The notes beneath the pieces are model-generated. The model was not told where the DNA came from. It saw only the letters and a program-made list of their open reading frames with translations, and ran no database searches. Positions 65-20,000 of a stretch of DNA of 20,000 nucleotides are shown here, in pieces. Source of the DNA: Rhizaria sp. SCN 62-66 (lineage: Eukaryota). The translations under genes and the position numbers were made by a program. Positions within the stretch are counted from its first letter, which is position 1, and each line of letters starts with the position of its first letter. The stretch is from the NCBI GenBank assembly GCA_001724265.1, contig MEDY01000127.1, forward strand, positions 49,260 through 69,259, written 5' to 3'.

Positions 65-3000
65 ATGGCCACGCATCGGTTGACTCGGGTTTTCGCCCGT
101 ATTCAGCGCGCATGCAACGCCGCAGTCCTTCCCTTTTCTCCTGCGTCTGCTCTTGCTCCTGCACATGCAGTTGCATCGACATCGACTTGTAACACACCGA
201 GTGCTGCTACTTCTTCTTCTCCTCACGCATCACCGGCACCGAGCGCTGGTGTTGTGTGCGATGTTGCGACTGCGCGCGCAATCTTTCTCGCTGCTCTTCG
301 CACCTCGCTTTCTCGCAGCGAACACGTTTCTCAAGCAACATTCAACAGTACAAGCAGTGCTGCTAACGCGGCTGCTGTGATGATTGCTGGCACTAGCGCG
401 GGCGCATTTGCAACATCTATGTTCAAGCCTAGCCATGCTGTGCTCGCCCAGTCTAAGAAGCACCAGAACAAACACAGCAACAGCAACAGCAACAGCAACA
501 ACAATAGCAACGGAAACGACTCTGATAGCAAGTCGACTCTCAACAGCGCTGCTGATGGCCAGCCGACCGCTGCCGCGAATGCCAGCGCCGCCGAGCCTCC
601 CAGCAAGCGCGCGTCTCTGGCCACTTCTGCCCGGTCGCTCTTCTCCCGCATCCAGTCCGCCGCCAACACCATGAACGAAGCCAACCCCAAGAACCCTAAG
701 AACAGCAGCAACAACAAGAGCATGGCCAGCGCTAGCTCCTCCCCTGCCGGCGCGCCTTTCGCCGACCTGCGCGAATATAAGCCGCTGTCCCCGCATCCGA
801 ACGCGGGCGCGGGCGCGGGGTCGCGGTCCGCCCACGCCCGCCACCAGCAGTTCCAGCAACAGCAGCAGGCCAAGGCGGAGGCGGCGAACCCGGTGGTGCC
901 GATGCCCAAGATGGGCTTCCCGGTCATCGGGCTCGTGCTGCTGGTGCTGGTGCCGGTGTTGCTGGCCGCCGCGCAGAGCCCTCGCGCGCAGGCGCAGTCG
1001 CCGGAGAGCTACGACAAGACGTACGGCAGCAAGGACTCGAGCAGTGAGAATGCTGTTAATGCGAGTGCGAGTGGGGGCAGCGTATATTAGGCGAACCGTC
1101 TTCCGAATAACGACGATCACACCGCGAAAGTCCCTTCAGCAAGCGCCAACAACAGTAAGAGTGTCGTATCCGTTGTCGAGAGCTCAACAACAACAACAAC
1201 AACGATCACGACGACGACGACAGTGTCCGACACTGCGACGGGGGAGACCGGTGATCTCAACAGCGGCAGCAGCAGTGACCATGAGCAGCAGCTTAGAGCG
1301 CCCCTGCACCGGACTGCCCTCAGCACATAGGCAACTAGACTCCCATTAAACTCCCACAATAACAACACTGCCAGCGATGAGGTACGTACAGTGAAGGCGC
1401 GTGCGCTGTCGCTCGCCTACTTAGCCTGTGTCGCTGCCCCCATGAAGCTGTTGGCGGCCACGGCGCGGTCGCTGCGCTTTACGATCCTCTTGATCCGCTT
1501 CCTGCCTCTCTTGGCGCTCGTCGCTGTCTGCTACGCGATTCCGCCCCCTCTTTACGACCAGTCGCACAGCGGCGCTGCGAACGAGGGCGAGCGGCGACCT
1601 AACTTTTACGAGCGGCTAACTTTATTCACCAACACGGCGCTCACGCGCGCGCTGGCCCGCAGCGGCCCCGCGTTCGTGAAGCTCGCGCAGTACGCATCGA
1701 CGCGGCCCGACGTGTTGCCACACGCGCTGTGCACGCAGCTGGGCGCGCTGCAGGACGACACGGAGCCGCACTCGTGGGCCGAGAGCGAGAAAGCGCTGGT
1801 GAGAGCGCTCGGGGAGGACTGGGAGGATGTGCTTTGTATCAGCGAGCATGATAAGCTCAAACCGGTCGGATCTGGGTGTATTGCGCAGGTCTATATGGGC
1901 AAGATGCGTTCTCCTGACAAGAAAGCGACCAAAAGCAGCATTATGACGTACAGTGCTCACCAGAACGCTGCTCACAGTCATACCTGCTCTGCTCACGGTC
2001 ACTTCGCGTCGGCCGATGCGGATAGGTTTGACTGGGATGACGTTGCGATCAAAATCATCCACCCGTCGGCACAATGGGTTCTCTCCCGTGACCTGGCCAT
2101 TGTGCGCACTATCGCACGTCTTGCATGCTATATCCCGCCGCTGCGGGATTTTTTTGCACTGATGCCGCCCTTGCAGCTCGTGCACGAGTTCGAGCTGCTG
2201 ATGTAGTGCCAGCTTGATTTGCGGCACGAGGCCGAGAACATCAACATGATGCGGCTTAATTTCGGGCTTGATACCCCGCAGTCACTGCAACTCCGCAGCA
2301 AGGGGTACATCACCAGCAACAGTAGTAGTGGTCTCCGCAATAGTGTTAATGCTCCTCCTAAGTCCCGCTCCTCGTCGCTGACTGCTTCTGCAGCCTCTAC
2401 AGCTCACGGTCATCAGAGCGGGCAACAGGCACCTTCGCCCGAGGCTGGCTATGTGTTCAGCCCCGTGCGCGCCATCGTACAACACCCGTCGTCTCCGTTC
2501 AGCATCGAGTTCCCTTCTGTCTACACGGCCACGCCCAGTGTGTTGGTGGAGCGGTTTCACTGGGGACTGCCGGCGTCGCACCTCATCGCGTCCACGCTGA
2601 GTGACCGTGAGCTGGAAGAGCACGCGACGGACTATGAGCAACAGAAGCTCGGTTTGAACAGTGGCAGTGGCAATATTAGTGGCAGCGACGCGAATAAGAA
2701 GATCGATGCCAGCAGGGCGCAGGAAGTTAAGCCGCCGTCGACAACGTCGTTGCAACACCTGCTGTTGCGTAACATGACGGTACAACAGCGCGAGACCGTT
2801 GCGAAAGAGGTTGCTGCCACCGGTCTCAACGCGTTTCTGCTGATGCTATTCCGCCACGGGTATTTCCACGCTGACTTGCACCCCGGCAACATCATCATCG
2901 ATCTCGGATATGACTGGCCACCACCTTGCACGGTCACTGTGCGTAACAGCAGCGAAACCCACAGTCAGTGCAGCGAATGCGCCCACAGCAGCCGCCCCGC

Positions 3001-4249
3001 TGCCACCCGTGGCGCTCACAGGCACTACGACACGGCGACGGTGACGTCTGCGACTGAAAGCGACATTAGCAGTTGTCTCGACGCGTTGGCTACGGTGCAT
3101 GTGTCAGACGACGCAGCTGCTGCCAGCGCAAAGCAAGCGAACCAAGAGCAGCTACACTACGTCAACACCATTCTTCACAGCAACAACACGGTCACAGACT
3201 TTCGCAGTAGCAACGGCAACAACGATACTGCAATTGATAACGTGAGTGTTCGCCCTGTGGCTACTGCAATCAAGGCATCTGTGTCATCTGTGCTGTCATC
3301 TCTCTCACAGACAGTTGCTGCGGCACTCTGTGAGAACAGCGTTTACAGGCAGTTCTACAACAGCATGGCTTGCAACGCGCCGTCGCTCACCCTCAAGCTC
3401 GGCCTGCCTACGCCGACCTCGACCTCAAACAACGATGACACGCCTGCGGACACCAGCGGCGGCTTAACTTCGACCACGGTTGATGCTCTCGTCTTCGAGC
3501 CAGCGTTGCCGTTCGCCCCGTTGACAATGTTCCCATCCACCGTGTTCCAAGCCTTACACCCAAACGACTCGCGCTTACACGAGGCCTTTGCCGCCGACCA
3601 CCCCTTAGCGTACCAGGCGTGGTACTTAGCCCACGGTCTCCCGCTGCCCCCGCGCCAGCCGCGGCTCATTCTCATCGACGCCGGCATGACAACCCCTCTG
3701 CTCGACAGCGAAATGGTCAACTTCCGCGACTTGTTCTATGCTGTTGCGCTGGGCAGGGGCAAGGAGGCCGCGGAGATGATGGTCGACCGCGCCCCCACGC
3801 GGCCTAACTTACCGCCACGGAGCCCGGAGTCGCGACAGCAGTTTGTCGACACGGTCTCGGCGTTGATCGACAAGGCCGCCAGCGCGGGGTTCAAGCTCTC
3901 CTCCCTCGGCGTGGTCGAGACGCTGCAGGGCCTTGTCACCGCTGCCAGGACGCACCTCGTGCCGCTGGATCCGGCGTTTCTCTCTGTCATCGTCGCTGTG
4001 ACGGTGACCGAAGGCGTCGGCCGCTCGCTCGACCCCAACGTCGACATCGTGACGCCGGCGATCACTGTCGTGGCCAAAGCGAGGATTGATGAGCTGTTGG
4101 CGCAGCAGACGTGCAACTTAAGCCGCCTGAAGAGGCTTGGCGGCATGGCGGGATATAACACGAGCACTGTCGAGGGCGCTCTTGCAGAGACCGCGGCGGA
4201 CGCCACTGTGGGGGTTGAATCTCCCGCAGCTGAGAAGAAGACTGAGTGA
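65..4249 (+). CDS. ABC1/UbiB (aarF-domain) atypical protein kinase, ADCK2/Cqd1-like; 1394 aa if the three in-frame TAG codons (1088-1090, 1328-1330, 2204-2206) are read as sense
   Basis: ORF-track pieces 65..1090, 1391..2206 and 2219..4249 share one frame, and the gaps translate openly apart from TAG. UbiB motifs occur in order: GPAFVKLAQYASTRPD, PVGSGCIAQVY, VAIKIIHP, EFELLM*CQLDLRHEAENI, FHADLHPGNI, LILIDAGM, EGVGRSLDPNVDI. The Arg/Ala/Ser-rich, acid-poor N-terminus resembles a mitochondrial presequence. Ends TGA 4247-4249. The kinase call is firm; the exact start at 65 is less so. Confidence 0.88.
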
Positions 4250-4393
4250 CGGATTAACGATCAACCGCCTGTAATTTATTCAACGAATCTTCATAATTTA
4301 TTCTGTAACGTCATATTGTTATGATATCAATATGAATACACACTATATAGCTTATCTTCCTGAAGTAAATCTTTTGTCAAGTACCCAACATGA

Positions 4394-7300
4394 TCAAATC
4401 CTCTGCTGCTACTGCTGCTGTACCTTTTGCTGTTGGCGCTTCTTGTCTTCCTCAACGATTGCAGCCCACTTGGCCAGCCTCGCCGCCTCCGCAGCAGCCT
4501 CTGCCGCTTGCTTCGTGCCCTGCCCATGCTTGGTGACTGCTGCCGCTGCCGCCGCCGCCGCTGTTGCAGCAGCTGTGGCAGCTGGCGCAGTACCGCGTGT
4601 TGAAGAAGAGCCTCTGACGCTGGTGCTGCTGCTGATGTTGCGTCCAACAATTTCATCATCATCGCTCACGTCAATCTGTTGTGTCGGATCAAAGTCAAGC
4701 CGCATATTGACATTTACCTTATTTCTCGGCACACGAGTCTGCGCGTTGTTGTTGTGACTCGACTGGGACTGTGTCAGCGACTGAGTCTGAGACTGCGGCG
4801 ACTGCCCGTGCGACAGCGCATGCAGCGCCTGCGCCCTGGCCGCCGCCCCCGCCGCCGCAGCAGCGGCCCCCTTGGCGCTGGCTTCCGTCGCGGCCGCCGC
4901 CGAGGGGCGCACGGCGGGCCTCGCGGTGCCGTCATTGCCCGAACCGACCTTGAACGGTGCCGTCGCGTGGCGGTTGCTCGTCCCGCAGCCGCAGTGCACG
5001 CCGAGAGTCGTGTGCGTGAGGTGAGCGGTGCAGTCGCGCGTATGAGTCACAGCGTCCGTGCCGTCGTTATGTGGAGACGCATCATCAGGAGTTTGCATCG
5101 GACCCTCGGCATCATCACAGGAGTTGTGAACGTGCTTGGCGTTGTGCGTGGATGTGGGTGAGCTAGGGTTCACATTCGGAACGAAGCCGGCTTGACTTGC
5201 GATATACTGCTGCCGCTTCAACCGCGCTTCAGCCTCCGCAAGCGTTTGCCTCAGCATCACTTGCCTTCCTGTCTCACCAGTGTGCGCACCGACAAACGCA
5301 CCGCGCGCCCGCGCCCGCGACGGCGACGACAGAGCGAGCGCGGACGGCGCCGCAGCGGGCGCGGCGGCCTCGGTGGCGGCGGCCGGAAGCGGCACAGGGC
5401 CGTTGCTGTTCGTGCAGTTGGTCGCAACGACAACAGTGTTGCTTTTGTTCTCATTGCTGGTGCTTTGCGTGACGTGGAAAGGCGGCGTTTGAAGCGGAAT
5501 TGTGCGCGTTGTCGCAAGACGATCGCGCAAAGTTAAACCGCAATTATTGTTGTTCACGGAAGCAACAAGCGCAGCGGCTTCAGTGGACAAGCCAGCTGAT
5601 GAGCCATTGTTGCACGAGTTGCGGTGCAGGAGAGATGCCAGCAAAGCGTCGTCGTCCTCCTTGCTGTATTCATCATGGCTGCCGCTATAACCATCAGAGC
5701 TCGGATCATAGTCGTCGACCGCGTCAGCGTCATGCATCCTGTTGCCCGCGTTCGCATTGTTCGCATTAGCATCACTCTGCGACTGCGACTGTGCGAGCAC
5801 ATGCGAGTGCGATTGTGAGTTTGCACCTTGTTGCTGCTGATGCTGTTGCTGTTGCTGTTGCTGGAGCGAAAGTAGCGAATGGGGCGTATGCGTGAAACTG
5901 ACAATTAACCCACCATGCACCAGCACAGTCCCGACATTGGCTACACCAGCCACCACAACCCCAGGCGCAGTCTGCTGCCGTTGCCGCTGCTGGTTCTGGT
6001 TCAGATTCGACATGATGAGCTTCCTGGTTAGCCTCGCAACTGTAATCGCTTGGCTCGACTCGACGCTCGGCGTTACTTGCGACGGACCCCGGATCACGCG
6101 CACAGGCGCATCGCCGGGCGCGGCTTGACTTAAATCATACTAGCTGCACTGCTGCTGCTGGTGATGGGGGTTGCGCACGAGAGGAAACTTAGCGCGGGGG
6201 TACTTGCACGTGACAGCAGGCGCGGTGTTCACATTCGATGTCGCGCTTCGAGAGCTCTCACCACCGGGGTTCTGCTGCTGATGATCGAGATCATCGTGAT
6301 CGCTATCGTGTGCGTTCTCACCTCGGTCAAGCGGCCCACGCCAGAGCAGGCCCTGTCGGGCATCAGCGCTGGCCTGCGCTAAATCGCCCCACCACTGACC
6401 CTCGGTGCTGTTCTCGGTCTTCGCCACCGTCTCGGCGGCGTACAAATCCTATCCGCTACTGTTGCCTTGAAGAGGGTTCACAAAGTATCCGCCAGTGCTA
6501 GCGCTGCTGTTGCCAACACGGTGTGATTTGGTGCGCTTGATCAGCGCGGGCTCCGGCCTCGCCCGCGGCACCTTGGCCGGCATCGGCTTGGCCGTTGCTC
6601 CCGCCAGGTCCGGCCCGTACACCGCCGACATCGCAGTCGCGGGCCCTGGCCCCAGAGACGACTCCGCGAGCGGATGGCTCGCCCAGTCGATCGGGAACAC
6701 CACCGACGCCGCGGGGACCGTGCCGGCACTCGCGGACACCGGCGGCATCGCAAGCCCCTCCGCAGACACGTGGGATTGGGAGCCAGGAAACGTGTGAGTC
6801 ATCGGTACCGGTGCCGTGCGTTCTAGAACAGCCTCGCGCGCCATGGCGGCGACGCGTGCGCCCGCGATTTGCCTGCGGTTGCGGCCTGTGGCAGCCACCC
6901 GCACGCCGAGGCTCAGCGCCTGCGCGCCTTTGCCGGCCGCGGCCGGGCTGCTGAGGCTGCTGGCCGCGGCGATGAGATGACGCGTGTTGGCGCGCGCCGT
7001 CATCGATAGCGACGAGGCGTGGTTGCTGAGCGCGGCGCCGGAGCAGTCGCTCGCGACGGCCGGGTTGCTGTAGCTGCGGACGTCGTTCGCGCGAGTGCCC
7101 GCGCCGCGGCTCGTCTGGGCGCGTGCAATACAGGCGGCCGTTTTGTGATTGTGATTGTCGTTGTTGTTGATGTTCGAGTTGGGGTTTGCTGCGAGTGCGC
7201 CGTGGTTGGGGACAGCGGCGGCAGTGGCGACACCGCATCCTACGCCGACGCCGGCAGCGGCGGCCCTGTCCAGCAGCGGAGCAATGTCCCTGCGGAGACG

Positions 7301-7966
7301 CAGGATGCGGCTCTCTTGCACTTGCCGCAGACCGGCCGCGACCGACTGCGCGGGCATCACGTACGGCGACTGCGACTGAGACGGAGACAGAGCGGAACGA
7401 GGCGTTGATTTGATGTGCGAGGCGGGCGAGTGAAAGTACCCTGAGCCGTCCAAGTACCCTTGCTGGTACGCAGTCGCTGTCGCAGTCATACTGTTGGCGT
7501 TGACGTTGGAGTTGGAGTTGGCGTGTTGGGGGACAGGAAGCGGGATGCCAAGTCGGTCATGAGCCCACTGCGGCATCGCGGCGGCGATGGAGCCGGGCGG
7601 CAGCAGGACCATTGACTGCTGGGTGCGGAATAGCGCGTCATTGTCGTCAGCGCTATCACCTACGGATAGAGATGATGAAGGGTACTCGTCGTTGATGAAG
7701 CGAACGGTCGATGCGTTGGCACTCGAAGTCGGGTAACCGGCAGAAGCAGCACTGCCAGCGGCCGGGGCGAGGGCAGGACCGTAAGCCCGCGGCCTATAAG
7801 GCGATGAAGATACGTTAGACGGTAGAATCATCGACCCCGTAGAGCGAAGAGCCGATGGCATAGTGACGCTATGCGCGGAGGTGTGGGGAGCTGAGGCCAT
7901 CGCAGCAGGTCCAGACGCGAAGGCCATGCCGCTCGGTCGCGAGCGAGCACTGTCGCTAGATGACAT
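4394..7966 (-). CDS. Hypothetical low-complexity (A/S/Q/N/H-rich) protein; 1190 aa if the three in-frame TAG codons (6449-6451, 6140-6142, 4409-4411) are read as sense
   Basis: ORF-track pieces 6449..7966, 6140..6445 and 4409..6103 share one frame and are separated only by TAG. ATG at 7966-7964 follows an AT-rich spacer with an in-frame TAA. The C-terminus QQQKVQQQ*QQRI ends at TGA 4396-4394, where composition turns AT-rich. No domain recognised. Confidence 0.75.
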
Positions 7967-9783
7967 TATGAGGAGCTATTAAAAAAGGAAATAATACAAC
8001 TATAACAAAAGGATCGGGAAAAGAGCGGGCAGTGAGTTTGACGATGCCGTTGATTCAATCCAGAACGGTTTCTTCCCTCCATCGCTCAGGCTTCATCTCC
8101 AAGCCACAGTGCAGCAGCGAGGCATAGACAATTAAGAGTATTTCTCATAATGGCAAACGACTGGAAAAATGCCGGCAAGATATGGAATTTGGGATGTGTA
8201 TTTGAAGAAGAATATATTAACTGGATAACGGGCGCGATACTATTCCCACGGGGATTCTTTGTCGTAGAGACAGCACGCTTTAGATTGAAACGAAACAAAA
8301 TGGAGGAAGGTTTGCACGAATGCCAGATCGACACGGACACAGAGACTAGTTCAGCTTGAATTATCTAGCGCCTGTGGTGAGACTGCCATGCTTGCAAGAA
8401 GATGGTGATCGAATCCCCAAACGAAGAGACAACAAAGTGACTGAAGCAGACGTCACATCGCACACTTTGCAGACGAAAACGACCCACACAGGAGGCGGTC
8501 GCGTTATCGTGCTCAGCTGCGATGTCGCGTCATGCGTGTCTTTGTGATGGTTGTGTAGAGGGCCAATAAATAACAGTTCAAAGCTCAGATGAGCCTTGGC
8601 AGCGAACCCTGTACACAGGCTCAACAAGAGACACACTCGTTTTGTGACAAACAGCGATCAAAGCAGCGAAAGCAAGCAACGGCTCAAATCAGGGAGTCAG
8701 TTTACGATCAGTAATAGTGACATTACTTTGCAACATCACCAAAGATATATGCAACATGTCAAAGAACAGAATACTGTGGCAGATGTACTGATATCCTGAC
8801 GGTACGCTTGGTTGCTGGCACTGGCTTGTTGTCACGCAGTCGCACGGTGGTGGAGCTAGGACTGCTTTAGTAGTATTATTAACGGTGCCACTGGCTTAAT
8901 TAACTGTAGTAGCAGTGACGTTCGCGCCAGGAGGCAGTGGTTGCGTTGTTTGTTGTGTGAAGTTACATTAGATCCATTAATGGTTGATAGTGCGTCAGAG
9001 CGCATGAGAGGCGAATGGTGGAGGGGAGAGAGATAAATAAGACGGTCGGTGTGAATTATCTGCAAAAGGGAAAGTGAAAGCAAACAGTATAGCGCAAGGA
9101 AAGGAGTGTGTTGTTGTGACTGGTGAGCTGTGCTGTTCTGTTGTCATGCCTTGCTGTGTTTGCGATGTGTAGGTTGTGTTTCGTGATAGTTTCATCGTAG
9201 TCGCCGTTGTTGTTGTTGTTGTTGCTCCTCCGTTGAGATATTGTTGCTGCTTCTCGTGCCACTGGTAATGCTGCTACTGATGCGAAAGCGCGTGTGCAAG
9301 TGTTGGTGTTACTTTCCGTTTGTGTGGTGCGTGATCGTCTTTGTTGCGACTGAGGTTTGGAAAACTGGCATCGTAGTGCTTCTTACTAAACTTGCGTTTG
9401 TTCACGTTTTGCGTTGTGCATACTGGTATCGCATAGATTCGGCTCCACTTTTAATCTCATGAGGAATTGCTACATCAAACACCAATCACCAAGCATTAGG
9501 AGCATGACAACATCCGAAGCAGCGTCAGCAGAAACACGAATCACGACGAACACAGGAGTACCACAACAATACGGAGACAAACAAACACACACGCACAAAG
9601 CTCAGCAACAGAAGCAACACCAGCAGCAGCGACACGAGAAGAGTTCAACAACAACGAGCCAACAAACACCGAAGCAGACGACGACAAGACTAACACAAAG
9701 CACGCACGTACACATCAGGCGACACGAGTACTGACACAACAGCACCCCTGATAGCTACTGAGAGCGATATCAGGAGCAGCAAT

Positions 9784-9785
<2 letters not shown>

Positions 9786-9836
<51 letters not shown>
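9786..9836 (+). repeat. (CAG)17 / (CTG)17 trinucleotide microsatellite
   Basis: 17 perfect CAG units counted directly, preceded by CAG GAG CAG CAA TAG and followed by CAA. Confidence 0.97.
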
Positions 9837-9839
<3 letters not shown>

Positions 9840-10024
9840 GTCACAACAGTGGCGACACCAGCGACGCCAGTGACACATGATAGAAATATAGATAGACAGA
9901 GATAGGTAACACGCAGGACCGCACGCGCGCGAATGCGAGTGCGCAAGTGCAAGTGATGCGGCTATACAGCAGCGACACACCGCGGCAAGTTAACACATCG
10001 CATTCATAGCTCATACCAAGCGCT

Positions 10025-10517
10025 TTATGAAAAGCGGCGTGAGGCTGAGCCAAGCGCAGCGCGCGAAGAGCTGAGGGAAAGATAGACACAGATATACGCG
10101 AGTTGGGTGAAAGGAAACTTACGTATCGTCCCCGTCGTACACGACGAGAGTGTAGTCGCTGTGGGGGAAAGGCGAGTTGGAGAGCACGGCCTTGACGGCC
10201 GAGCTGGCCGCAGTGCGAAGGCCAGTCTCCTGCTTGGCACCCTCGACGCTGCTGTTGCCGTTCGAGGTGACAAGGGCGTCGACAGCGACGGGACCGACCG
10301 ACATGACGGCGGAAAAAGCAGCGACGGACGACACGCGGGGGCCCGCGCGGGAGGCGGCAGCGACAGCGACAACGGAGGAGGCAGAGGAGGCGGCGGCGGC
10401 GAGGGCAGCGCGAGAGACGTTGCGGCCGGCGGAAATCATGCTGGCGAAGTGGCGCGAGGCGTGCGCGGTAGCGACAGCGCGGTGCATAACGCGACCGCAA
10501 AGACGAGACGCGTACAT
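10025..10517 (-). CDS. Small Ala/Ser/Arg-rich protein with probable mitochondrial presequence; 132 aa unspliced (stop 10121-10119) or 146 aa spliced (exons 10517-10123, 10070-10025)
   Basis: ATG 10517 gives MYASRLCGRVMHRAVATAHASRHFAS..., with GC-rich coding-like codons and a basic N-terminus, ending in acidic YDGDDT. A GTAAGT donor at 10122 and a polypyrimidine-CAG acceptor at 10071 define a 52-nt intron. Both forms end in TAA. Confidence 0.6.
10071..10122 (-). other. Putative 52-nt spliceosomal intron
   Basis: Minus strand reads GTAAGTTTCC...TCTATCTTTCCCTCAG. Confidence 0.6.
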
Positions 10518-10895
10518 TACCTTTGGGCAAAAGGAGTGCAGTCCCACTGACGGAGAGTTGCAACCAGAAAATTGATTGCAAATTCGTCCTCAGTCCAGTC
10601 TCGGTCTGGCTCCCGCTATAGAAAGTTAGGCCGCCCAGGTCCAGCCACAGTCAAAACTCGGCAGGCCGGTCTGGGACTCGGTGACCAGAAAGAGCAGTGG
10701 CTAGGATTAAGTTTGATTCTGGATCGTCGCGCAGTCTCCGTCTATACGGTTCCACGTGCATTTTCTGGTATTATTGTTTGTATTTAATTCAGCATCCTTA
10801 ATTCGAGTCCCCCAATAGACTATATCACCTCTGGGGCACCTCTCGTCTTATCGACTCACCACTCTCTCGGAGCCACCAACAAGTTTCCCACCTAC

Positions 10896-11062
10896 GTACG
10901 TCTCTCTTGCACTACAGCCCGCCTTCTTTCGAAGATCGCTTTCATATACGAATTTAAATATTTTCAATTTATCTTCCTTGCTCACTTACATTCCTTTTAA
11001 TATTTGTCTTTGCCTCCAATTCACTTCCCTGCGTGACCTTGACTTTTACGTATCCGTTGCAG
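10896..11062 (+). other. Putative 5'-UTR intron of the U2AF large-subunit-like gene
   Basis: GTACGT donor at 10896 (same hexamer as the coding introns in this window), T/C-rich body, TTGCAG acceptor at 11062, 51 nt before the ATG. Confidence 0.5.
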
Positions 11063-11113: not shown

Positions 11114-13060
11114 ATGTCGTTCTTCCCCCCGTCTCAGGACGGCGCTGGCGTGGCCCCTGCTGGCGCACTGGCCTCCACGAGCGACTTTCGCGACTCTCGT
11201 GACGGTCGCGACAGCCGTGATAGCCGCAGCCGCGACCCCCGCGACTCCCGTGAGTCTCGCGACGCTCCCCGCAGCAGCCGCGGTGGCAGCCGCGACCGCG
11301 ACAGCCGCAGCCGTAGCCGCGACCGCGACGGGAACCGTCGCAGCTCGGTTGGCTCTGGCTCTAGTAGTTCGCGATACGACCGTGAGCGCTATGACCGCGA
11401 CCGCTACGACCGTGGGTCGACCGGCCGCTACGACGATCGTGACCGATACGTCGTCCCCAGCAGCAGCGACCGTTACTCTTCGAGTAGCGCCGACCGCGAC
11501 CGTGAGCGTGACCGCGACCGTGACCGTAGTGACCGTGACCGCGAGCGTGAGCGTGAGCGTGAGCGTGAGCGTGAGCGTGAGCGTGACCGCGGTCGTGGTG
11601 GCCGCAGCGACCGCGACCGTGACCGTGACCGTAGTGACCGTGAGCGCGGTGGCGGTGGCGGTGACCGTGGGCGCGATTCGTACCGCGGTGACCGCGACCG
11701 CGACCGCGCGAGTGACCGTGAGCGCGGCAGTGACCGTGAGCGTGACCGGCCCGCAGCCTTCGACTCTGACGCGGTGGCACGCTCCCTCGCTTCCGGCGAC
11801 AGCGCCCCTGGCTCTGGCTCGAGTGCGGCTGCTGCGGTGCATCCCTCCCGGGCTGGCCTCGTGGGCTCAGCCTCCGCGGCCCCCCGCTTCAGCCACCAAA
11901 CCGACTCTGCCGCCGCCACTGGCTCCACTGGCCCTGCGGTGCCCAACTCCGGGCTCAACCCGATCCTCGTCGCGCAAACGCGTCTCTCGCGCCGCATCTT
12001 CATCGGCAACCTGCCCGCGCACCCCGCGCTGACTGACCGCATCGTGCAGCAGTTCTTCGAGCTGTTCATGTCGCAGCGCGGCTTCACGACCCCCGGTCCG
12101 ATCATCAACGTCGCGCTCGCCGCTGAACGCACCTACTGCTTCGCCGAGCTGCGGTCCGTTGCCGACGCCGTGGCGTTGGTGCTGCTGCTTGACGGGCAGG
12201 AGATGGGCGGCCGCCGTCTGCGCGTGTCGCGCCCGCGCGACTTCACCCCAGCCCCGCCCGCGCTCGCCAATTTCATCGTCGGCCTGCCCCCGGGGTCCTT
12301 CCTCCCGCCCGTGTCGACGCCGGTTGAGGCAGCGCTGCTCAACGCCACCGTCGCCGCGCAGCTCAACTCGGCCGCGGCGCTTGCCGCGCTCCCCGCACCC
12401 GTGCAGAGCGCGCTCACCGCCGAGCTGGGCCAGATGGGGCTGCTGACCGCGGTCACGGCGGCGGCCAAGATCGCGCCCGTGCCAGTGCCCGTGGACCCCG
12501 CGACGGGCCGGGTCACCACCGGCAGCGTCGTCGTGCTCTCGCACCTGCTCGCGGAACACGTGGCCCCCACCGCGACTACCCCCACGAGTACCGCGGATGC
12601 CGTCGAAACTGCGGCGTCTAAGGGGGTACTTAGTCCGCTGAGCGACTCGCGCGCGTGGTTGGACCTCGTCGACGACATCCGGTCCCAGCTCACCACGACC
12701 GTGCTCACGGTCACCGCGGCGGCCGGCGCGCCCCGCACCGCCAACAGCGACCGTGAGCTGCAACGGCCTGTGCTGCGTGTCATCGTGCCCCGCACCGCGC
12801 CGTTCGACCCCGCCGTGCTGTCAGAGGAGGCGGGGCGCGGCGGCGGCGTGGCGAGCGACGGCAGCGAGGTGGACCTGGCTGCGGACTGTGGTCCCGTCAA
12901 TGCAGCCCACGCGGGCTCAGTCTGGGTGCTGATGAGCTCGGAGCAGGGCGCGCGCGCAGTCGTCGAGGCAATGCACGGACGTCTGTACCGCAGGAACAAG
13001 GTCGTCGCGACTTTTGGTACGATGGAGGAGTTTGAAAAGCTTCTTAGGAACTCTGTGTGA
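11114..13060 (+). CDS. U2AF2: U2 snRNP auxiliary factor large subunit (U2AF65/U2AF2)-like protein, divergent, 648 aa, intronless CDS
   Basis: N-terminal RS/RD/RE region. RRM1-like TRLSRRIFIGNLP...YCFAELRSVADA...LDGQEMGGRRLRVSRPRDF matches recalled U2AF65 TRQARRLYVGNIP...FAFLEFRSV...LKIRRPHDY. C-terminal UHM-like region: VVVLSHLL...DLVDDIRSQL...VLRVIVPR...GSVWVLM...AMHGRLYRRNKVVATF. Ends TGA. Confidence 0.8.
   Translation: MSFFPPSQDGAGVAPAGALASTSDFRDSRDGRDSRDSRSRDPRDSRESRDAPRSSRGGSRDRDSRSRSRDRDGNRRSSVGSGSSSSRYDRERYDRDRYDRGSTGRYDDRDRYVVPSSSDRYSSSSADRDRERDRDRDRSDRDRERERERERERERERDRGRGGRSDRDRDRDRSDRERGGGGGDRGRDSYRGDRDRDRASDRERGSDRERDRPAAFDSDAVARSLASGDSAPGSGSSAAAAVHPSRAGLVGSASAAPRFSHQTDSAAATGSTGPAVPNSGLNPILVAQTRLSRRIFIGNLPAHPALTDRIVQQFFELFMSQRGFTTPGPIINVALAAERTYCFAELRSVADAVALVLLLDGQEMGGRRLRVSRPRDFTPAPPALANFIVGLPPGSFLPPVSTPVEAALLNATVAAQLNSAAALAALPAPVQSALTAELGQMGLLTAVTAAAKIAPVPVPVDPATGRVTTGSVVVLSHLLAEHVAPTATTPTSTADAVETAASKGVLSPLSDSRAWLDLVDDIRSQLTTTVLTVTAAAGAPRTANSDRELQRPVLRVIVPRTAPFDPAVLSEEAGRGGGVASDGSEVDLAADCGPVNAAHAGSVWVLMSSEQGARAVVEAMHGRLYRRNKVVATFGTMEEFEKLLRNSV
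11543..11584 (+). repeat. (GAGCGT)7 hexamer repeat encoding (ER)7, within a wider GACCGY/GAGCGT repeat region (~11490-11750)
   Basis: Seven perfect units counted directly; in frame with the RD/RE region of the U2AF-like CDS. Confidence 0.93.
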
Positions 13061-13291: not shown

Positions 13292-13968
13292 ATGCAGTCT
13301 TCCCGCGCTGGCCAGAAGGACGTTGCTCGCGTCTACGAGCGTCCCGGTCTCTCGAGCGACGAGATCGATGAGCTCTCCGAGGCGTTCAAGCTTTTCGACA
13401 CCGAGCAGTCCGGTACGTATTGACTACGCTCTCGCGTATCTCTTTGTCAGTGGTCCACCCTTTTTGCTGATGAAATGCTGTCTGTAATCTTGCCGCGCGC
13501 CTCCTTGCTTGCTCGCTCTGACTCCGTCTTGTTACTTTCTGTCCTTGACCTCACCCACGCTAACACGGCTGGCGCTCTCTGTTCATTCCCTGTGTAGGTT
13601 ACATTGATGCTAACGAGCTCAAAGCCGCGATGGAGTCCTTGGGCTACCGCAACAAGAACCGCATGGTGTACAACATGATCGAGTCTCTTCCTTCTGGCAT
13701 GATCAACTTCGATCGTTTCCTCGACCTCATGACGGCCCGCATCTCCGACACGGACTCGCGCGAGGACATTGCCAAGCTCTTCCGCCTCTTTTCCAACGAC
13801 GGACAGTTTATCACCGTGGATAACCTGCAGATGGTAGCCAAGGAGCTCGGTGAGCCCATGTCACAGGCGGAGCTGCGCGAGATGATCGAGCGCGCCGACG
13901 CCAACGGCGACAATCGCATCGATTTCGAGGAGTTTTACGCCATCATGACTAACAAGAGCTTCGATTGA
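13292..13968 (+). CDS. Centrin (EF-hand protein), ICL1-like subfamily, 163 aa; exons 13292-13412 and 13598-13968
   Basis: Spliced translation: MQSSRAGQKDVARVYERPGLSSDEIDELSEAFKLFDTEQSG/YIDANELKAAMESLGY...FLDLMTARISDTDSREDI...VAKELGEPM...EMIERADANGDNRIDFEEFYAIMTNKSFD. YERPGL, ELKAAM, MTARIS and FYxIMTxKxF match recalled Paramecium ICL1-type centrins. Ends TGA. Confidence 0.93.
13413..13597 (+). other. Spliceosomal intron in centrin (185 nt, phase 1)
   Basis: GTACGT donor, GCTAAC branch-like site at 13559-13564, TGTAG acceptor; removal restores the EF-hand 1 loop DTEQSGYIDANE. Confidence 0.92.
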
Positions 13969-14755: not shown

Positions 14756-16493
14756 TTACTGCGCGTCCGCGAAACCAATGCGGGAGACGATAAGGTTGAG
14801 GTTCTCGTCCGCGGTGGGGTCGATCTGGAGCAGGTGCAGGAACATGTGCGCAAAAGTGTCAGGGATGACGCGCGCACCGATGATCTTCGCGATGAACTCC
14901 TTCGACAGACGCAGTGCGCCGTGGGACGCAGCCGCGTCCGACTCGGGCTCGGCCGTCACCGCCGCGGTGTGAATGGCGGCGACCAAGGCCTGCGCAGTGG
15001 CCAGCGGCACCGACTTGCGGAGGTCGGCGATGATGGCAGAGGCGTGCTGGAGAGAGAAAGCCTTGACGGTGTTCTCCATGAGCATCGCCACGGTCATGGG
15101 GCCGACGCCGCCGGGCACGGGGGTGATGAACGAGGCGGCTATTAGCGATGATAGTCGCATCACAAAAAGAAAAAGAAGAATGCGCGATACAAGTCCGGGA
15201 GAAGCAAGTGTTTAAGTGCATTGAAGGGCGAAATGAAAAGAAGAAGGTTTAGAAAGTGAGACTTGGAGGTATAGATCTGTGTCGATTGTAAAAATAAAAA
15301 TAGATTTGATAATGCGAGACAAATGCGAGTATTATTTGCGGCGTACCGGCGCGGGCGGACTCGAAATCGACGTCGCCAACGAGGCGGTGGCCGGTCTTCT
15401 TGGTCTCGTCGTCGATCGCGTTGATTCCGACGTCGATGACAACGGCACCGTGGCGCAGCCACGAGCCCTGGACGAAGAGAGGGCGGCCAATGGCGGCAAT
15501 AACAATGTCCGCAGTGCCAACGACGGCGGCGAGGTTAGCAGTCTTGCTGTGGCACATGGTGACGGTGGCGTTCATGCCCTATTTCGCAGGAGTGTAATTT
15601 TAGTTAACACAGGAATCGCGGTAATAGTAGTAGCAGTCGAATAAACAGTGAAATAAAAAGAAGGAAAATCAAGTAAAAATGAGGAATCGTGCAACTTTGA
15701 TCATCGATTCACGAAGTAAACGCCACCCAGGAAGGTTTTTGTTCGCGCGATGCAAACTGAAGGGGATGACGAGAGAATGACGACAGTGCATTCCGGCCTC
15801 TCTCACGGAATAAATCCAGAGCATACGGAGTTGAAATAAAGCAAATAGCTACACATAATAGCATTATATACATTTGTCGTGCATTTATGCAGAAAAGATA
15901 CGTACCTGAAGGAGCATGGAGACGGGCTTGCCGACGAGGTTGGATCGACCGATAACGACAACATTCTTGCCCGCAACGGTAATGTTGTACTGCTTGAGCA
16001 GCTCAATGCAGCCCAGCGGCGTGCAGGGGATCAGTGGGGCATTGATGCCGTCGCGGAACAGCAGACCGGCGTTCATGGGATGCAGGCCGTCAACGTCCTT
16101 CTCGGGGGAGATCTTCTCGATCACGCCGACAGTGTTGAGGTTGGCAGGCAGGGGAAGCTGGATGAGGATGCCATTCACAGCGGGGTTGGCGTTAAGGTCG
16201 GAGATGAGCTTCTCCAAGTCCTCCTGAGAGACATCAGCGGGCAGCGCGTGCGTCTCGTGGAGGAAGCCGACCTCCTCGCACGCCTTGGCCTTCATGCGGA
16301 CGTACGTCGCGGAGTCCTTGCGGTCGCCCACGATAACGACGTCGAGGCGAGGGGTGAAGGTGCTCTCGTCGGCGCCGCGGGAGAGGCCGGAGCTCTTGAA
16401 AGCAATGACCTCCGCGGCAACGCGCTCGCGAACAACGCGGGAGCCTTGTGCACCCGAGATAAGCTCAGCAGTCGTGCTCAGAGCGAGAGACAT
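14756..16493 (-). CDS. folD: Bifunctional methylenetetrahydrofolate dehydrogenase/cyclohydrolase (FolD), 400 aa; exons 16493-15906, 15578-15347, 15138-14756
   Basis: Motifs [66 protein letters not shown] and [17 protein letters not shown] join in frame across two GT-AG introns. Ends TAA 14758-14756. Confidence 0.95.
15139..15346 (-). other. FolD intron 2 (208 nt, phase 1)
   Basis: G|GTACGC donor and GCTAATAG|CC acceptor; joins DFESARA to [11 protein letters not shown]. Confidence 0.88.
15579..15905 (-). other. FolD intron 1 (327 nt, phase 0)
   Basis: CAG|GTACGT donor and AAATAG|GGC acceptor; joins MLLQ to [11 protein letters not shown]. Confidence 0.88.
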
Positions 16494-17689: not shown

Positions 17690-19201
17690 ATGTCCGCTCC
17701 TCGCAACCAAACCGCCCCTATGACCCTTGCCGCCGGCGCCGCTGTTGGTTTGGTCGGCATCATCATCGGTTACTTCGCTTCCCAGGTCTCCCCATGCAAG
17801 ACCCTCCTGAAGTGGAAGTCTTCCGCCTCCGCTGCCCCCGCTGCCGCCGCCACTGCGACCACCGCAATGACTGGTGCCGCGTCAATCGAGCACGACAAGC
17901 CCGTCGAGACGCGCATGTACGAGCAGGCTAAGGCTCTCAACGAGTATCTTCTGCTGCACTACGGCGAGGCCTTCTCTGGCAACTTCGCGCCCAACGCGGA
18001 CGGCACCTCCTACTCCCTCGACTTTGGCACTGAGCTCACGAACGAGTTCGGCAACTTTGGTCTGTTTGACGTTAAGACCGGCAAGGTCAACGCCCCGCTT
18101 TTCCCCACGTTTGCGCTTAACTTCCCTGCGCGCGTCGCTCAGCTCGCCGCGCACTTCGCTGGTACGCCTGGCGTTCTTATCTAGACAACTTTTAACTTCG
18201 TTTAACACAATGTTTCTTGCGCAAGTCTTGCCCGTTAGCAACAAAATGTTCCCAATATCCGGAACTAATGATGGTACAACTTTGACTTGTAGTTTTCAAT
18301 GCGTACATATAGCAGTATATTTACATGTTTGCCTTTAAATTTATTTGTTGTTTTGCTTGTTCTGACTCAGGCGTCGCGACCTCTGCCGCGCCCGCCGGCC
18401 GTGCTCTTGACGTCGGCTGCGCTGTCGGCCGCACTACGTTCGAGCTCTCCAACTTCTTCGACACTGTCATCGGCATCGACTACAGCAACTCGTTCATCGA
18501 AGCGGCGAAGCTGTTCGGCACTGGCGCCATCTGCCCCGTCACCGTTCCCATCGAGGGCGGGCTTAACTTCAAGTCCACCGTCTCCATCGCTGGCCGTTTC
18601 CGCCCCGCCGCGTGCTCCTTCCAGGTTGGTGACGCCGGCAACATGGACGTGGCTGCGCTGGGCAAGTTCTCGTGTGTGACTGCCGCCAACCTCATCGACC
18701 GTCTCCCGCGTCCCCGCGCCTTCCTCAAGGTACGTTCTTGTTCTTCTGAAACGTCGTACAGTGTTCACCAATATGACGTATAAGATGACAACACGTTTAT
18801 ATTACACAGTTATGATGTTTTGTTCCGAAATTATTTGATCTTGGCCTTTTACTACCTCGTTTTAAACTCGTCACTCACTTTTTCATGTTGCTCTATCTGT
18901 TTCTGTCGTCCTCACCCAGGCGTGCGCGCACCTGGTGGCCCCCGGCGGCGTCCTCGTCATCACGTCCCCGTACACCTGGCTTGCCGAGTTCACCCCGCGC
19001 GAGGAGTGGCTCGGCGGCGGCTACCCCACCGTCTCCGCCGACGGGACCGAGAAATTCACCACCACCTTCGAGGCCCTCAAGACAGAGCTTCTGGGCGATT
19101 TCGAGCTCGTGCACCACAGCCACATGCCGTTTTTCATCCGTGAGACCGGCCGCAAGAACCAGTTCACCCTCGCGCACGCTACCGTGTGGCGCCGCAAGTA
19201 A
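17690..19201 (+). CDS. Class I SAM-dependent methyltransferase resembling the C-terminal (mercaptohistidine N-methyltransferase) domain of ovothiol synthase OvoA; 370 aa; exons 17690-18161, 18371-18729, 18920-19201
   Basis: YE..KALNEYLLLHYG, NFPARVA, RALDVGCAVGRTTFEL, GIDYSNSFI, FQVGDA, ANLIDRLPRPRAFL, PGGVLVITSPYTWLAEFTPREEWLGG and PFFIRETGRKNQFT match the recalled OvoA C-terminal pattern. N-terminal hydrophobic segment AAGAAVGLVGIIIGYFA. Ends TAA directly after ATVWRRK. Confidence 0.87.
18162..18370 (+). other. Methyltransferase intron 1 (209 nt, phase 1)
   Basis: G|GTACGC donor, AT-rich body, TCTGACTCAG acceptor; frame preserved on splicing. Confidence 0.88.
18730..18919 (+). other. Methyltransferase intron 2 (190 nt, phase 0)
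   Basis: AAG|GTACGT donor and CTCACCCAG acceptor; joins AFLK to ACAHLVAPGG. Confidence 0.9.
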
Positions 19202-19807: not shown

Positions 19808-20000
19808 TTAGGTCATGGTGCAAGCAGCCTTAGTGACGGAGGCAAGAATAATGCCAATAATGAGGCCGTAGAGACCGAGGGCTTCGGCGAAAATGAGAAT
19901 GAGGACCATGGGGACGTAGAGCTTCTCGTGCTGGCCGGAGGCGCGGACACCGGAGTCACCGATGATACCAATGGCGAGGCCGGCAGCGAGGGAAGAGAGA
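19808..20000 (-). CDS. V-type H+-ATPase 16-kDa proteolipid subunit c, 3' part (runs off the window; absent from the ORF track)
   Basis: Manual translation [63 protein letters not shown] contains the hallmark [15 protein letters not shown] with the proton-carrying Glu. Stop TAA 19810-19808. Confidence 0.95.

Follow-up and report, generated by a model that had tools for sequence, protein, structure and literature searches.

UAG as a probable sense codon, with UAA and UGA kept as stops, in two adjacent genes of an uncultured wastewater eukaryote

We analyzed a stretch of 20,000 nucleotides (hereafter, the window) from contig MEDY01000127.1 of the assembly GCA_001724265.1, deposited as Rhizaria sp. 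SCN 62-66. Its left part carries two long, convergent genes without introns, an ADCK2-type atypical kinase gene (gene 1) and a gene for a low-complexity protein (gene 2), and its right part carries six further genes (Table 1). Each of the two long genes is interrupted by three in-frame TAG codons, and here we examine whether UAG is translated in this organism. The intron-split genes and the gene content identify the window as eukaryotic nuclear DNA. Contigs holding this stretch recur in bioreactor, wastewater and activated-sludge metagenomes from 2015-2025, so that its source is an uncultured eukaryote living in systems of this kind.

TAG codons within two adjacent genes

The first-pass annotation of this DNA, made from the sequence alone, had described the two genes as single frames broken only by TAG, free of internal TAA, TGA and frameshifts. 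Our in-frame counts confirmed this at all six positions. In both genes alike, TAA is absent, TGA occurs once, as the terminator, and TAG occurs three times; in-frame TAA as frequent as in-frame TAG, which the annotation had named as speaking against its proposal, was not seen in them. No frameshift was found, and the two genes together run for 2,584 codons without an internal TAA or TGA. The other two frames of each gene contain 25-50 TAA and TGA codons, and an unconstrained frame of such length would stay open with a probability of about 1e-11 to 1e-22, so that chance does not account for the two open frames. UAG makes up about 0.2% of the codons of the two genes. Five of the TAGs are unambiguous, and the one at 4409 (context CAG CAG CAG TAG CAG CAG AGG ATT TGA) is ambiguous, because it stands only four codons before the TGA.

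Table 1 Genes and in-frame TAG codons of the window (positions counted from its first nucleotide)
Feature	Position	Strand	Properties
Gene 1, ADCK2-type (ABC1-C) atypical kinase (predicted)	65-4249	+	1394 codons with TAG read through; intron-free; terminator TGA
In-frame TAG, codon 342 of gene 1	1088-1090	+	Low-complexity N-terminal region; unchanged in X2/X3 and X4 DNA contigs
In-frame TAG, codon 422 of gene 1	1328-1330	+	Unchanged in X2/X3 and X4 contigs
In-frame TAG, codon 714 of gene 1	2204-2206	+	Within the ABC1 kinase core; unchanged in X4 contig 1621-2536
Gene 2, low-complexity protein of no known family	4394-7966	-	1190 codons with TAG read through; ends in TGA (4394-4396)
In-frame TAG, codon 506 of gene 2	6449-6451	-	Alignment gap against P0192; unchanged in X2/X3 and X4 contigs
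In-frame TAG, codon 609 of gene 2	6140-6142	-	Conserved block; unchanged in X2/X3 and X4 contigs
In-frame TAG, codon 1186 of gene 2	4409-4411	-	Inside QQQ-TAG-QQ, four codons ahead of TGA; sense codon or true terminator
Small open reading frame	10119-10517	-	Presequence-like N-terminus; coding-type codon score; TAA end; putative exon structure
U2AF large-subunit-like gene with RS domain	11114-13060	+	648 codons, no TAG; terminator TGA
Centrin-like EF-hand gene	13292-13968	+	Two exons; terminator TGA
MTHFD/FolD gene	14756-16493	-	Three exons, two AT-rich introns; terminator TAA
OvoA C-terminal-type methyltransferase gene	17690-19201	+	Three exons; terminator TAA
V-ATPase proteolipid subunit c, 3' end	19808-19999	-	Terminator TAA at homologous C-terminus

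Gene 1 matched the Pfam family ABC1 with 79 bits (cut-off 22.9), its best named matches were ADCK2/ABC1-C proteins, and all ABC1 invariants are present in it (K663, E708, D718, E722, A723, N725, H935-D937-H939-P940-G941-N942 and D946). Judged by these similarities, gene 1 encodes an ADCK2/ABC1-C atypical kinase. The ADCK2-type ABC1 kinase family is mitochondrial in other eukaryotes. The TAG at codon 714 lies between the invariant E708 and the D718/E722/A723/N725 block, and the catalytic loop (H935-N942) together with D946 is intact downstream of it; a stop at codon 714 would cost the protein its catalytic loop. In the alignment, this codon takes up exactly one column. P0003, which at 56% identity is the closest relative, has Arg there, and all 45 other ADCK2 sequences aligned have a single residue.

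No family was found for gene 2 in a Pfam scan, and the protein P0192 was its sole relative among 1.84 billion representatives. P0192 shares one contig of 12,707 bases with the ADCK2 relative P0003, and thus the two-gene arrangement is conserved. Codon 609 of gene 2 stands opposite a Glu of P0192 (C-S-TAG-Y-D-L-S in the window, C-G-E-H-D-L-S in P0192), in an alignment that a shared Cys (-2) and a shared Asp-Leu-Ser (+2 to +4) hold in register. Hence, two of the six TAGs could be aligned to a relative, both being colinear with exactly one sense residue, and the other four lie in low-complexity sequence that cannot be aligned. Since both alignable TAGs stand for one residue, an excised intron or a stop at these sites would mean a deletion or a truncated enzyme. 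This shows that full-length proteins of genes 1 and 2, colinear with those of their relatives, need the TAGs to be translated.

The TAGs proved stable in independent DNA data. The data sets X2 and X3 gave identical figures and were counted as one, and X4 is a run from 2025 that belongs to another study. Among the contigs listed, those of X4 bridge all six TAGs, and those of X2/X3 bridge five of the six. None of the contigs of any run carried an alternative letter at any TAG; CAG at these sites, which the annotation had considered as counter-evidence if raw reads showed it, was thus not seen in the contigs, and the TAGs were unchanged across years and studies. X4 differs from the window at five positions, none of them at a TAG; two of these differences are synonymous and three non-synonymous, which is too few to read selection from them. 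The cluster members of the window's open reading frame (ORF) fragments included no strain in which a TAG is replaced by a sense codon, and P0194 likewise ends at codon 505. In the protein database, genes 1 and 2 are represented by fragments alone, whose starts or ends fall on the TAGs, and the same ORFs appear there on a contig of 172,059 bases; gene callers using the standard code break this organism's genes at TAG.

For transcripts, we used X6, a polyadenylated-RNA metatranscriptome of activated sludge. One of its contigs (804-1176) matched the window with no differences and no joint, and so spans the TAG at 1088, one of the six, although contigs cannot exclude carry-over of DNA. For the presence of UAG in mRNA, which the annotation had proposed to check, this gives partial support at one site, the TAG being unspliced and unedited in the contig; among the contigs listed, none covers the other five sites. 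Further X6 contigs fall on both genes but do not reach these five TAGs, a gap that speaks neither for nor against translation.

The eight terminators of the window are four TGA (gene 1, gene 2, the U2AF large subunit and centrin), four TAA (the small ORF at 10119, MTHFD, the OvoA C-terminal-type methyltransferase and V-ATPase subunit c) and no TAG, exactly as had been annotated. In two of the four genes that end in TAA, the stop falls at a homologous C-terminus. Residues 1-54 of the V-ATPase c fragment align to residues 103-156 of a solved chain of 164 residues, after which nine residues precede the TAA, compared with eight in the chain. The match of the methyltransferase to TIGR04345 reaches profile position 242 of 242, and the TAA then follows. 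We conclude that UAA and UGA are retained as terminators.

In the two N-terminal TAGs of gene 1, we observed similar peptides after the codon, X-A-N-R-L-P-N-N at 1088-1117 and X-A-T-R-L-P-L-N at 1328-1357 (codons TAG GCG AAC CGT CTT CCG and TAG GCA ACT AGA CTC CCA, respectively). They could stem from a short repeat within the gene that took the TAG along with it, or be alike by chance.

Explanations of the in-frame TAGs

We consider it probable that this organism reads UAG as an amino acid and still terminates translation at UAA and UGA. The proposal of the first-pass annotation is thereby supported, on the grounds of the colinearity of both alignable TAGs, the coding composition around the TAG sites, the constancy of the TAGs in the contigs of X4, the lack of a TAG terminator in the window and the position of TAA and TGA stops at homologous C-termini. 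In mechanistic terms, a tRNA with the anticodon CUA would read UAG, and eRF1 would no longer recognize UAG efficiently. Such a tRNA would most likely derive from tRNA-Gln(CUG) and less likely from tRNA-Glu or tRNA-Lys. A rare UAG concentrated in long, fast-evolving genes is what would be expected of a fairly recent reassignment.

Several observations weigh against this reading. There are only six TAGs, and all of them lie in two adjacent genes. The annotation had put the chance of six identical nonsense codons at (1/3)^5, about 0.4%, assuming that the three stops arise equally often. This figure was about ten-fold too optimistic: with the codon usage of the two genes (CAG 92, GAG 63, AAG 54, TCG 67 etc.), 58-61% of the single-base nonsense changes give TAG, and random nonsense mutation would yield six TAGs out of six with P = 0.04-0.05. 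At the same rate, the other six genes of the window (about 1,777 codons) should contain 3.4-4.1 TAGs, but they contain none (P = 0.016-0.032). The TAG at 4409 may be the actual terminator of gene 2 or a sign of context-dependent use. The RNA support is partial, consisting of a single contig from a library that can also hold DNA. ARAGORN found no tRNA gene in the 20-kb window, and an eRF1 gene is not among the genes of the window either. Finally, any amino acid proposed for UAG is at best a probable one, as the column of codon 714 is variable.

The alternative that survives best, although we regard it as improbable, is that the code is standard and the two neighboring genes are decaying pseudogenes, for instance of a redundant duplicated segment, that have acquired three nonsense mutations each. 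The confinement of the TAGs to these two genes and their absence from the other six keep this explanation alive, TAG is the commonest nonsense outcome for the codon usage, and three of the five strain differences are non-synonymous. In our view, the absence of TAG elsewhere probably reflects a rare, recently captured codon that is kept out of genes that are short, conserved or strongly biased. Decay should moreover have left other traces. Nonsense changes make up 2.4-2.7% of random substitutions, so that six of them imply about 230 substitutions and, presumably, indels as well, whereas the 2,584 codons contain no frameshift, TAA or TGA and every invariant ABC1 residue is intact. The alleles were the same in the samples from 2015 to 2025, and contigs from polyadenylated RNA fall on both genes. 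The protein searches revealed no paralogue of 57-99% identity to gene 1 or 2 and hence nothing to suggest a further, intact copy. It also speaks against decay that the ADCK2 gene is conserved and normally single.

About as improbable is an ambiguous UAG that terminates near the 3' ends of mRNAs and is read internally, either in a code of the Condylostoma/karyorelict type or by very efficient programmed readthrough. The TAG at 4409, four codons from the TGA, could be a working terminator of this kind, and rare TAG stops could escape a sample of eight terminators. The other seven terminators of the window do not include a TAG, however, and three successive readthroughs per gene would leave a negligible product unless readthrough were near-complete, which amounts to reassignment.

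It is very unlikely that the code is standard and that the TAGs are spliced out as unconventional in-phase introns or removed by U-to-C editing. By chance, 31-242 in-phase GT..AG candidates surround every TAG, and five of the six TAGs lack an RNA contig. Against this, the TAG at 1088 was unspliced and unedited in the contig that covers it, and codons 714 and 609 each match one residue in the relatives, so that excision would delete conserved residues, as the candidate introns across codon 714 would do. The composition around the TAGs is that of coding sequence (GC content 0.55-0.63; in-frame GC content at third codon positions, GC3, 0.57-0.77), unlike that of the three measured introns of the window, which are AT-rich (GC 0.36-0.40). 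Three of the six TAGs have no in-phase candidate intron with GTRHGY...YAG ends, and for the other three such candidates have, among the up to eight listed per site, a coding-type GC content of 0.56-0.62.

A coupled code, in which both UAA and UAG are sense codons and UGA is the sole stop, is contradicted by the TAA at the end of four of the eight genes, at homologous C-termini in V-ATPase c and the methyltransferase; the lack of TAA within the two frames would not have settled the matter alone (2.5 expected if TAA:TAG were as CAA:CAG; P(0) = 0.08).

Other genes and features of the window

Each exon of the MTHFD gene aligns, in order, to solved FolD/MTHFD chains in the PDB, and its intron 1 runs from GTACGT to AG. 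The MTHFD homologues, matching at about 52%, are mostly bacterial, and a cluster search with the MTHFD exon returned bacterial and plant clusters only. The two introns of the methyltransferase gene start with GTACG and end with CAG, and a TAG at 18182 lies within the first of them. In three of the four introns seen (15120-15930 on the minus strand and 18162-18920 on the plus strand), a motif resembling a branch point (CTGAC-TCAG, CTCAC-CCAG and GCTAAT-AG) lies only a few bases upstream of the 3' splice site, and three of the four begin with GTACG; these features might help to place the organism.

The methyltransferase gene is a stand-alone eukaryotic gene resembling the C-terminal methyltransferase domain of OvoA (TIGR04345, putative 4-mercaptohistidine N1-methyltransferase). 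Its exons 2 and 3 matched this family with E-values of 2e-23 and 2e-19, and the N-terminal exon encodes a hydrophobic segment. The C-terminus of V-ATPase c (19811-19999) is unusually divergent in a very conserved stretch that reads AQQPKLFVGMI or similar in the solved chains, which fits a deep or fast-evolving lineage. The U2AF-like protein scored 88 bits against the NCBIfam family U2AF_lg, below the cut-off of 310, and its RD/RS/RE domain is encoded by a 43-copy imperfect hexamer (GACCGT-like) at 11492-11748. An NCBIfam scan of the ORF at 10119 found no family, and an Rfam scan of the window gave one match, at chance level.

A 22.7-copy CAG/CTG repeat was found at 9771-9838, inside a long gene-poor stretch (8000-11000). 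Within genes 1 and 2, every DNA run shows a 5- to 10-fold rise in contig depth at 802-1068 and 4807-5607, together with numerous loose ends; coding repeats of high GC content and low complexity at these places draw contigs of other organisms at 90% likeness. We also considered whether the joints reported in contigs are introns and rejected this: their sides are 20-23 letters long and of low complexity, and they were seen in DNA runs, so that we treated them as cross-matches from other organisms.

Amino acid, relatives and known UAG codes

The two alignable sites, with Glu and Arg in the relatives, gave BLOSUM62 sums of +5 for Glu, +3 for Gln, +3 for Lys, -1 for Ser, -4 for Tyr, -5 for Leu and -6 for Trp. 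The column of codon 714 in the ADCK2 alignment is mostly polar (T20, R6, N4, K4, V2, L2 and singles in the 45 sequences, the Ts being mostly redundant fish sequences), and we rejected it as a guide to the amino acid, because it is too variable. Codon 1186 sits in QQQ-TAG-QQ, and positions with Gln on both sides make up 1.2% of all codon positions compared with 11.5% of the Gln codons. CAG, GAG and AAG are each one base away from TAG, the matching tRNAs are one anticodon base away from CUA, and Gln is the commonest known outcome of such changes. We therefore favor Gln, at roughly even chances; Glu and Lys, taken together, are a possible but less likely choice, and Leu or any other residue is unlikely, Leu being disfavored on two sites only.

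A tree of ADCK2 proteins groups the window and P0003 together with P0004/P0196, a grouping that is fully supported in the Shimodaira-Hasegawa-like approximate likelihood ratio test (SH-aLRT); this tree came from a quick search, has long branches and includes as named taxa only opisthokonts and one haptophyte. Locus L001, the nearest relative with readable DNA, has a member of the P0004/P0196 cluster on its contig. When loci were sought by means of the ADCK2 alignment, 34 from metagenomes, 80 from prokaryote genomes and 9 from viral collections were obtained, none of them closer than about 30-50% over short segments; the contig of the window and the 12,707-base contig of P0003 were not among them. 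L001 (1-21968) carries a long ADCK2 gene of the same architecture (1119 codons) beside genes for a CCT chaperonin subunit, a mitochondrial carrier and a P-loop/EF-hand protein of 1870 residues. Three of its eight long ORFs end in TAG, four in TAA and one in TGA, and the mitochondrial carrier ends at a TAG 19 residues past its third repeat, with further TAGs closely downstream. We conclude that TAG is a terminator in the L001 organism, which makes the change specific to a lineage; it would have arisen on the branch of the window after the divergence of the two.

The sister represented by P0003 and P0192 may stand on the same side of this change. Both proteins are gene calls made with the standard code and are shorter than the frames of the window (787 residues for P0003 vs 1394, and 586 for P0192 vs 1190): P0003 begins with a Val that corresponds to residue 512 of the window's gene 1, and the end of P0192 corresponds to residue 931 of the 1190 in gene 2. 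Such short calls are expected if the sister's genes are also interrupted by a codon that the standard code reads as a stop, and this may be the case.

UAG-only reassignment is already known in several lineages, and the present case would be a further member of this group. In the parts of the reports that concern these codes, UAG-to-Gln with UAA as a stop is described for Iotanema spirale (Fornicata) and for the ciliates Protocruzia tuzeti, Hartmannula sinica and Trochilia petrani (PMC5304391, PMC11687900). The window is like these codes in that UAG alone is sense, with UAA and UGA as stops, and Gln fits both the Glu and Arg of the relatives and the QQQ-TAG-QQ context. Unlike them, it is GC-rich (coding GC3 about 0.7), has GT..AG introns of 190-326 nucleotides and an ADCK2-type kinase, and uses TGA for four of eight terminators. 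For phyllopharyngeans, the same literature gives UGA as ending only 1.7-13.1% of the genes and a GC content of 27-54% (PMC11687900). None of the 63 ADCK2 matches came from a ciliate. Because of the intron size, the GC3, the share of genes ending in TGA and the absence of ciliates among the ADCK2 matches, the window does not look ciliate.

UAG-to-Leu is described, in the same parts of the literature, for the insect-dwelling sainouroid Rhizaria sp. exLh (Sainouroidea) and for three phyllopharyngean metagenome-assembled genomes from TARA (PMC5304391, PMC11687900). These cases, as presented there, resemble ours in being UAG-only changes in uncultured protists, known from sequence data, with a tRNA(CUA) as the expected mechanism. 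They probably differ in the amino acid, as the two alignable TAGs of the window face Glu and Arg, and the BLOSUM62 sum for Leu is negative. Further codes in which UAG and UAA differ in meaning are, according to the passages concerned, those of the green alga Scotinosphaera (UAG-to-Ser) and of an uncultured oligohymenophorean ciliate (UAA = Lys and UAG = Glu) (PMC11687900, PMC10553269). The window shares this separation of the two codons. Unlike in the oligohymenophorean, UAA is a terminator here, with Glu possible for UAG, and unlike in Scotinosphaera, Ser is weakly disfavored.

The coupled reassignment of UAA and UAG to Gln (NCBI table 6) occurs in many ciliates, Hexamita, ulvophytes, Streblomastix and Amoeboaphelidium. 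The window has in common with it a stop-to-sense change at UAG, probably to Gln, and departs from it in that UAA is not sense and ends half of the genes. In the literature, with supplementary files outside the scope of the search, we found no report of a UAG-reassigned eukaryote of activated sludge or of an amoeba of this kind.

Taken together, an undescribed, non-ciliate and probably aerobic wastewater eukaryote may have independently reassigned UAG alone to sense, probably to Gln, after its split from a relative with the standard code, and the syntenic sister may share the change; for this scenario as a whole, we see the arguments for and against as about balanced. The evidence base is small, comprising six codons in one window. 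Uncoupled changes of UAG and UAA are rare, being listed in the parts of the reports cited for a rhizarian, a fornicate, Scotinosphaera and a few ciliate lineages (PMC5304391, PMC11687900). The organism recurs over ten years in wastewater and bioreactor samples, and a relative with the standard code is at hand for comparison, which makes the case workable. If true, it would provide an independent data point from a GC-rich, intron-bearing eukaryote with an ADCK2 gene, and would bear on how eRF1 and suppressor tRNAs permit the capture of UAG while UAA remains a stop.

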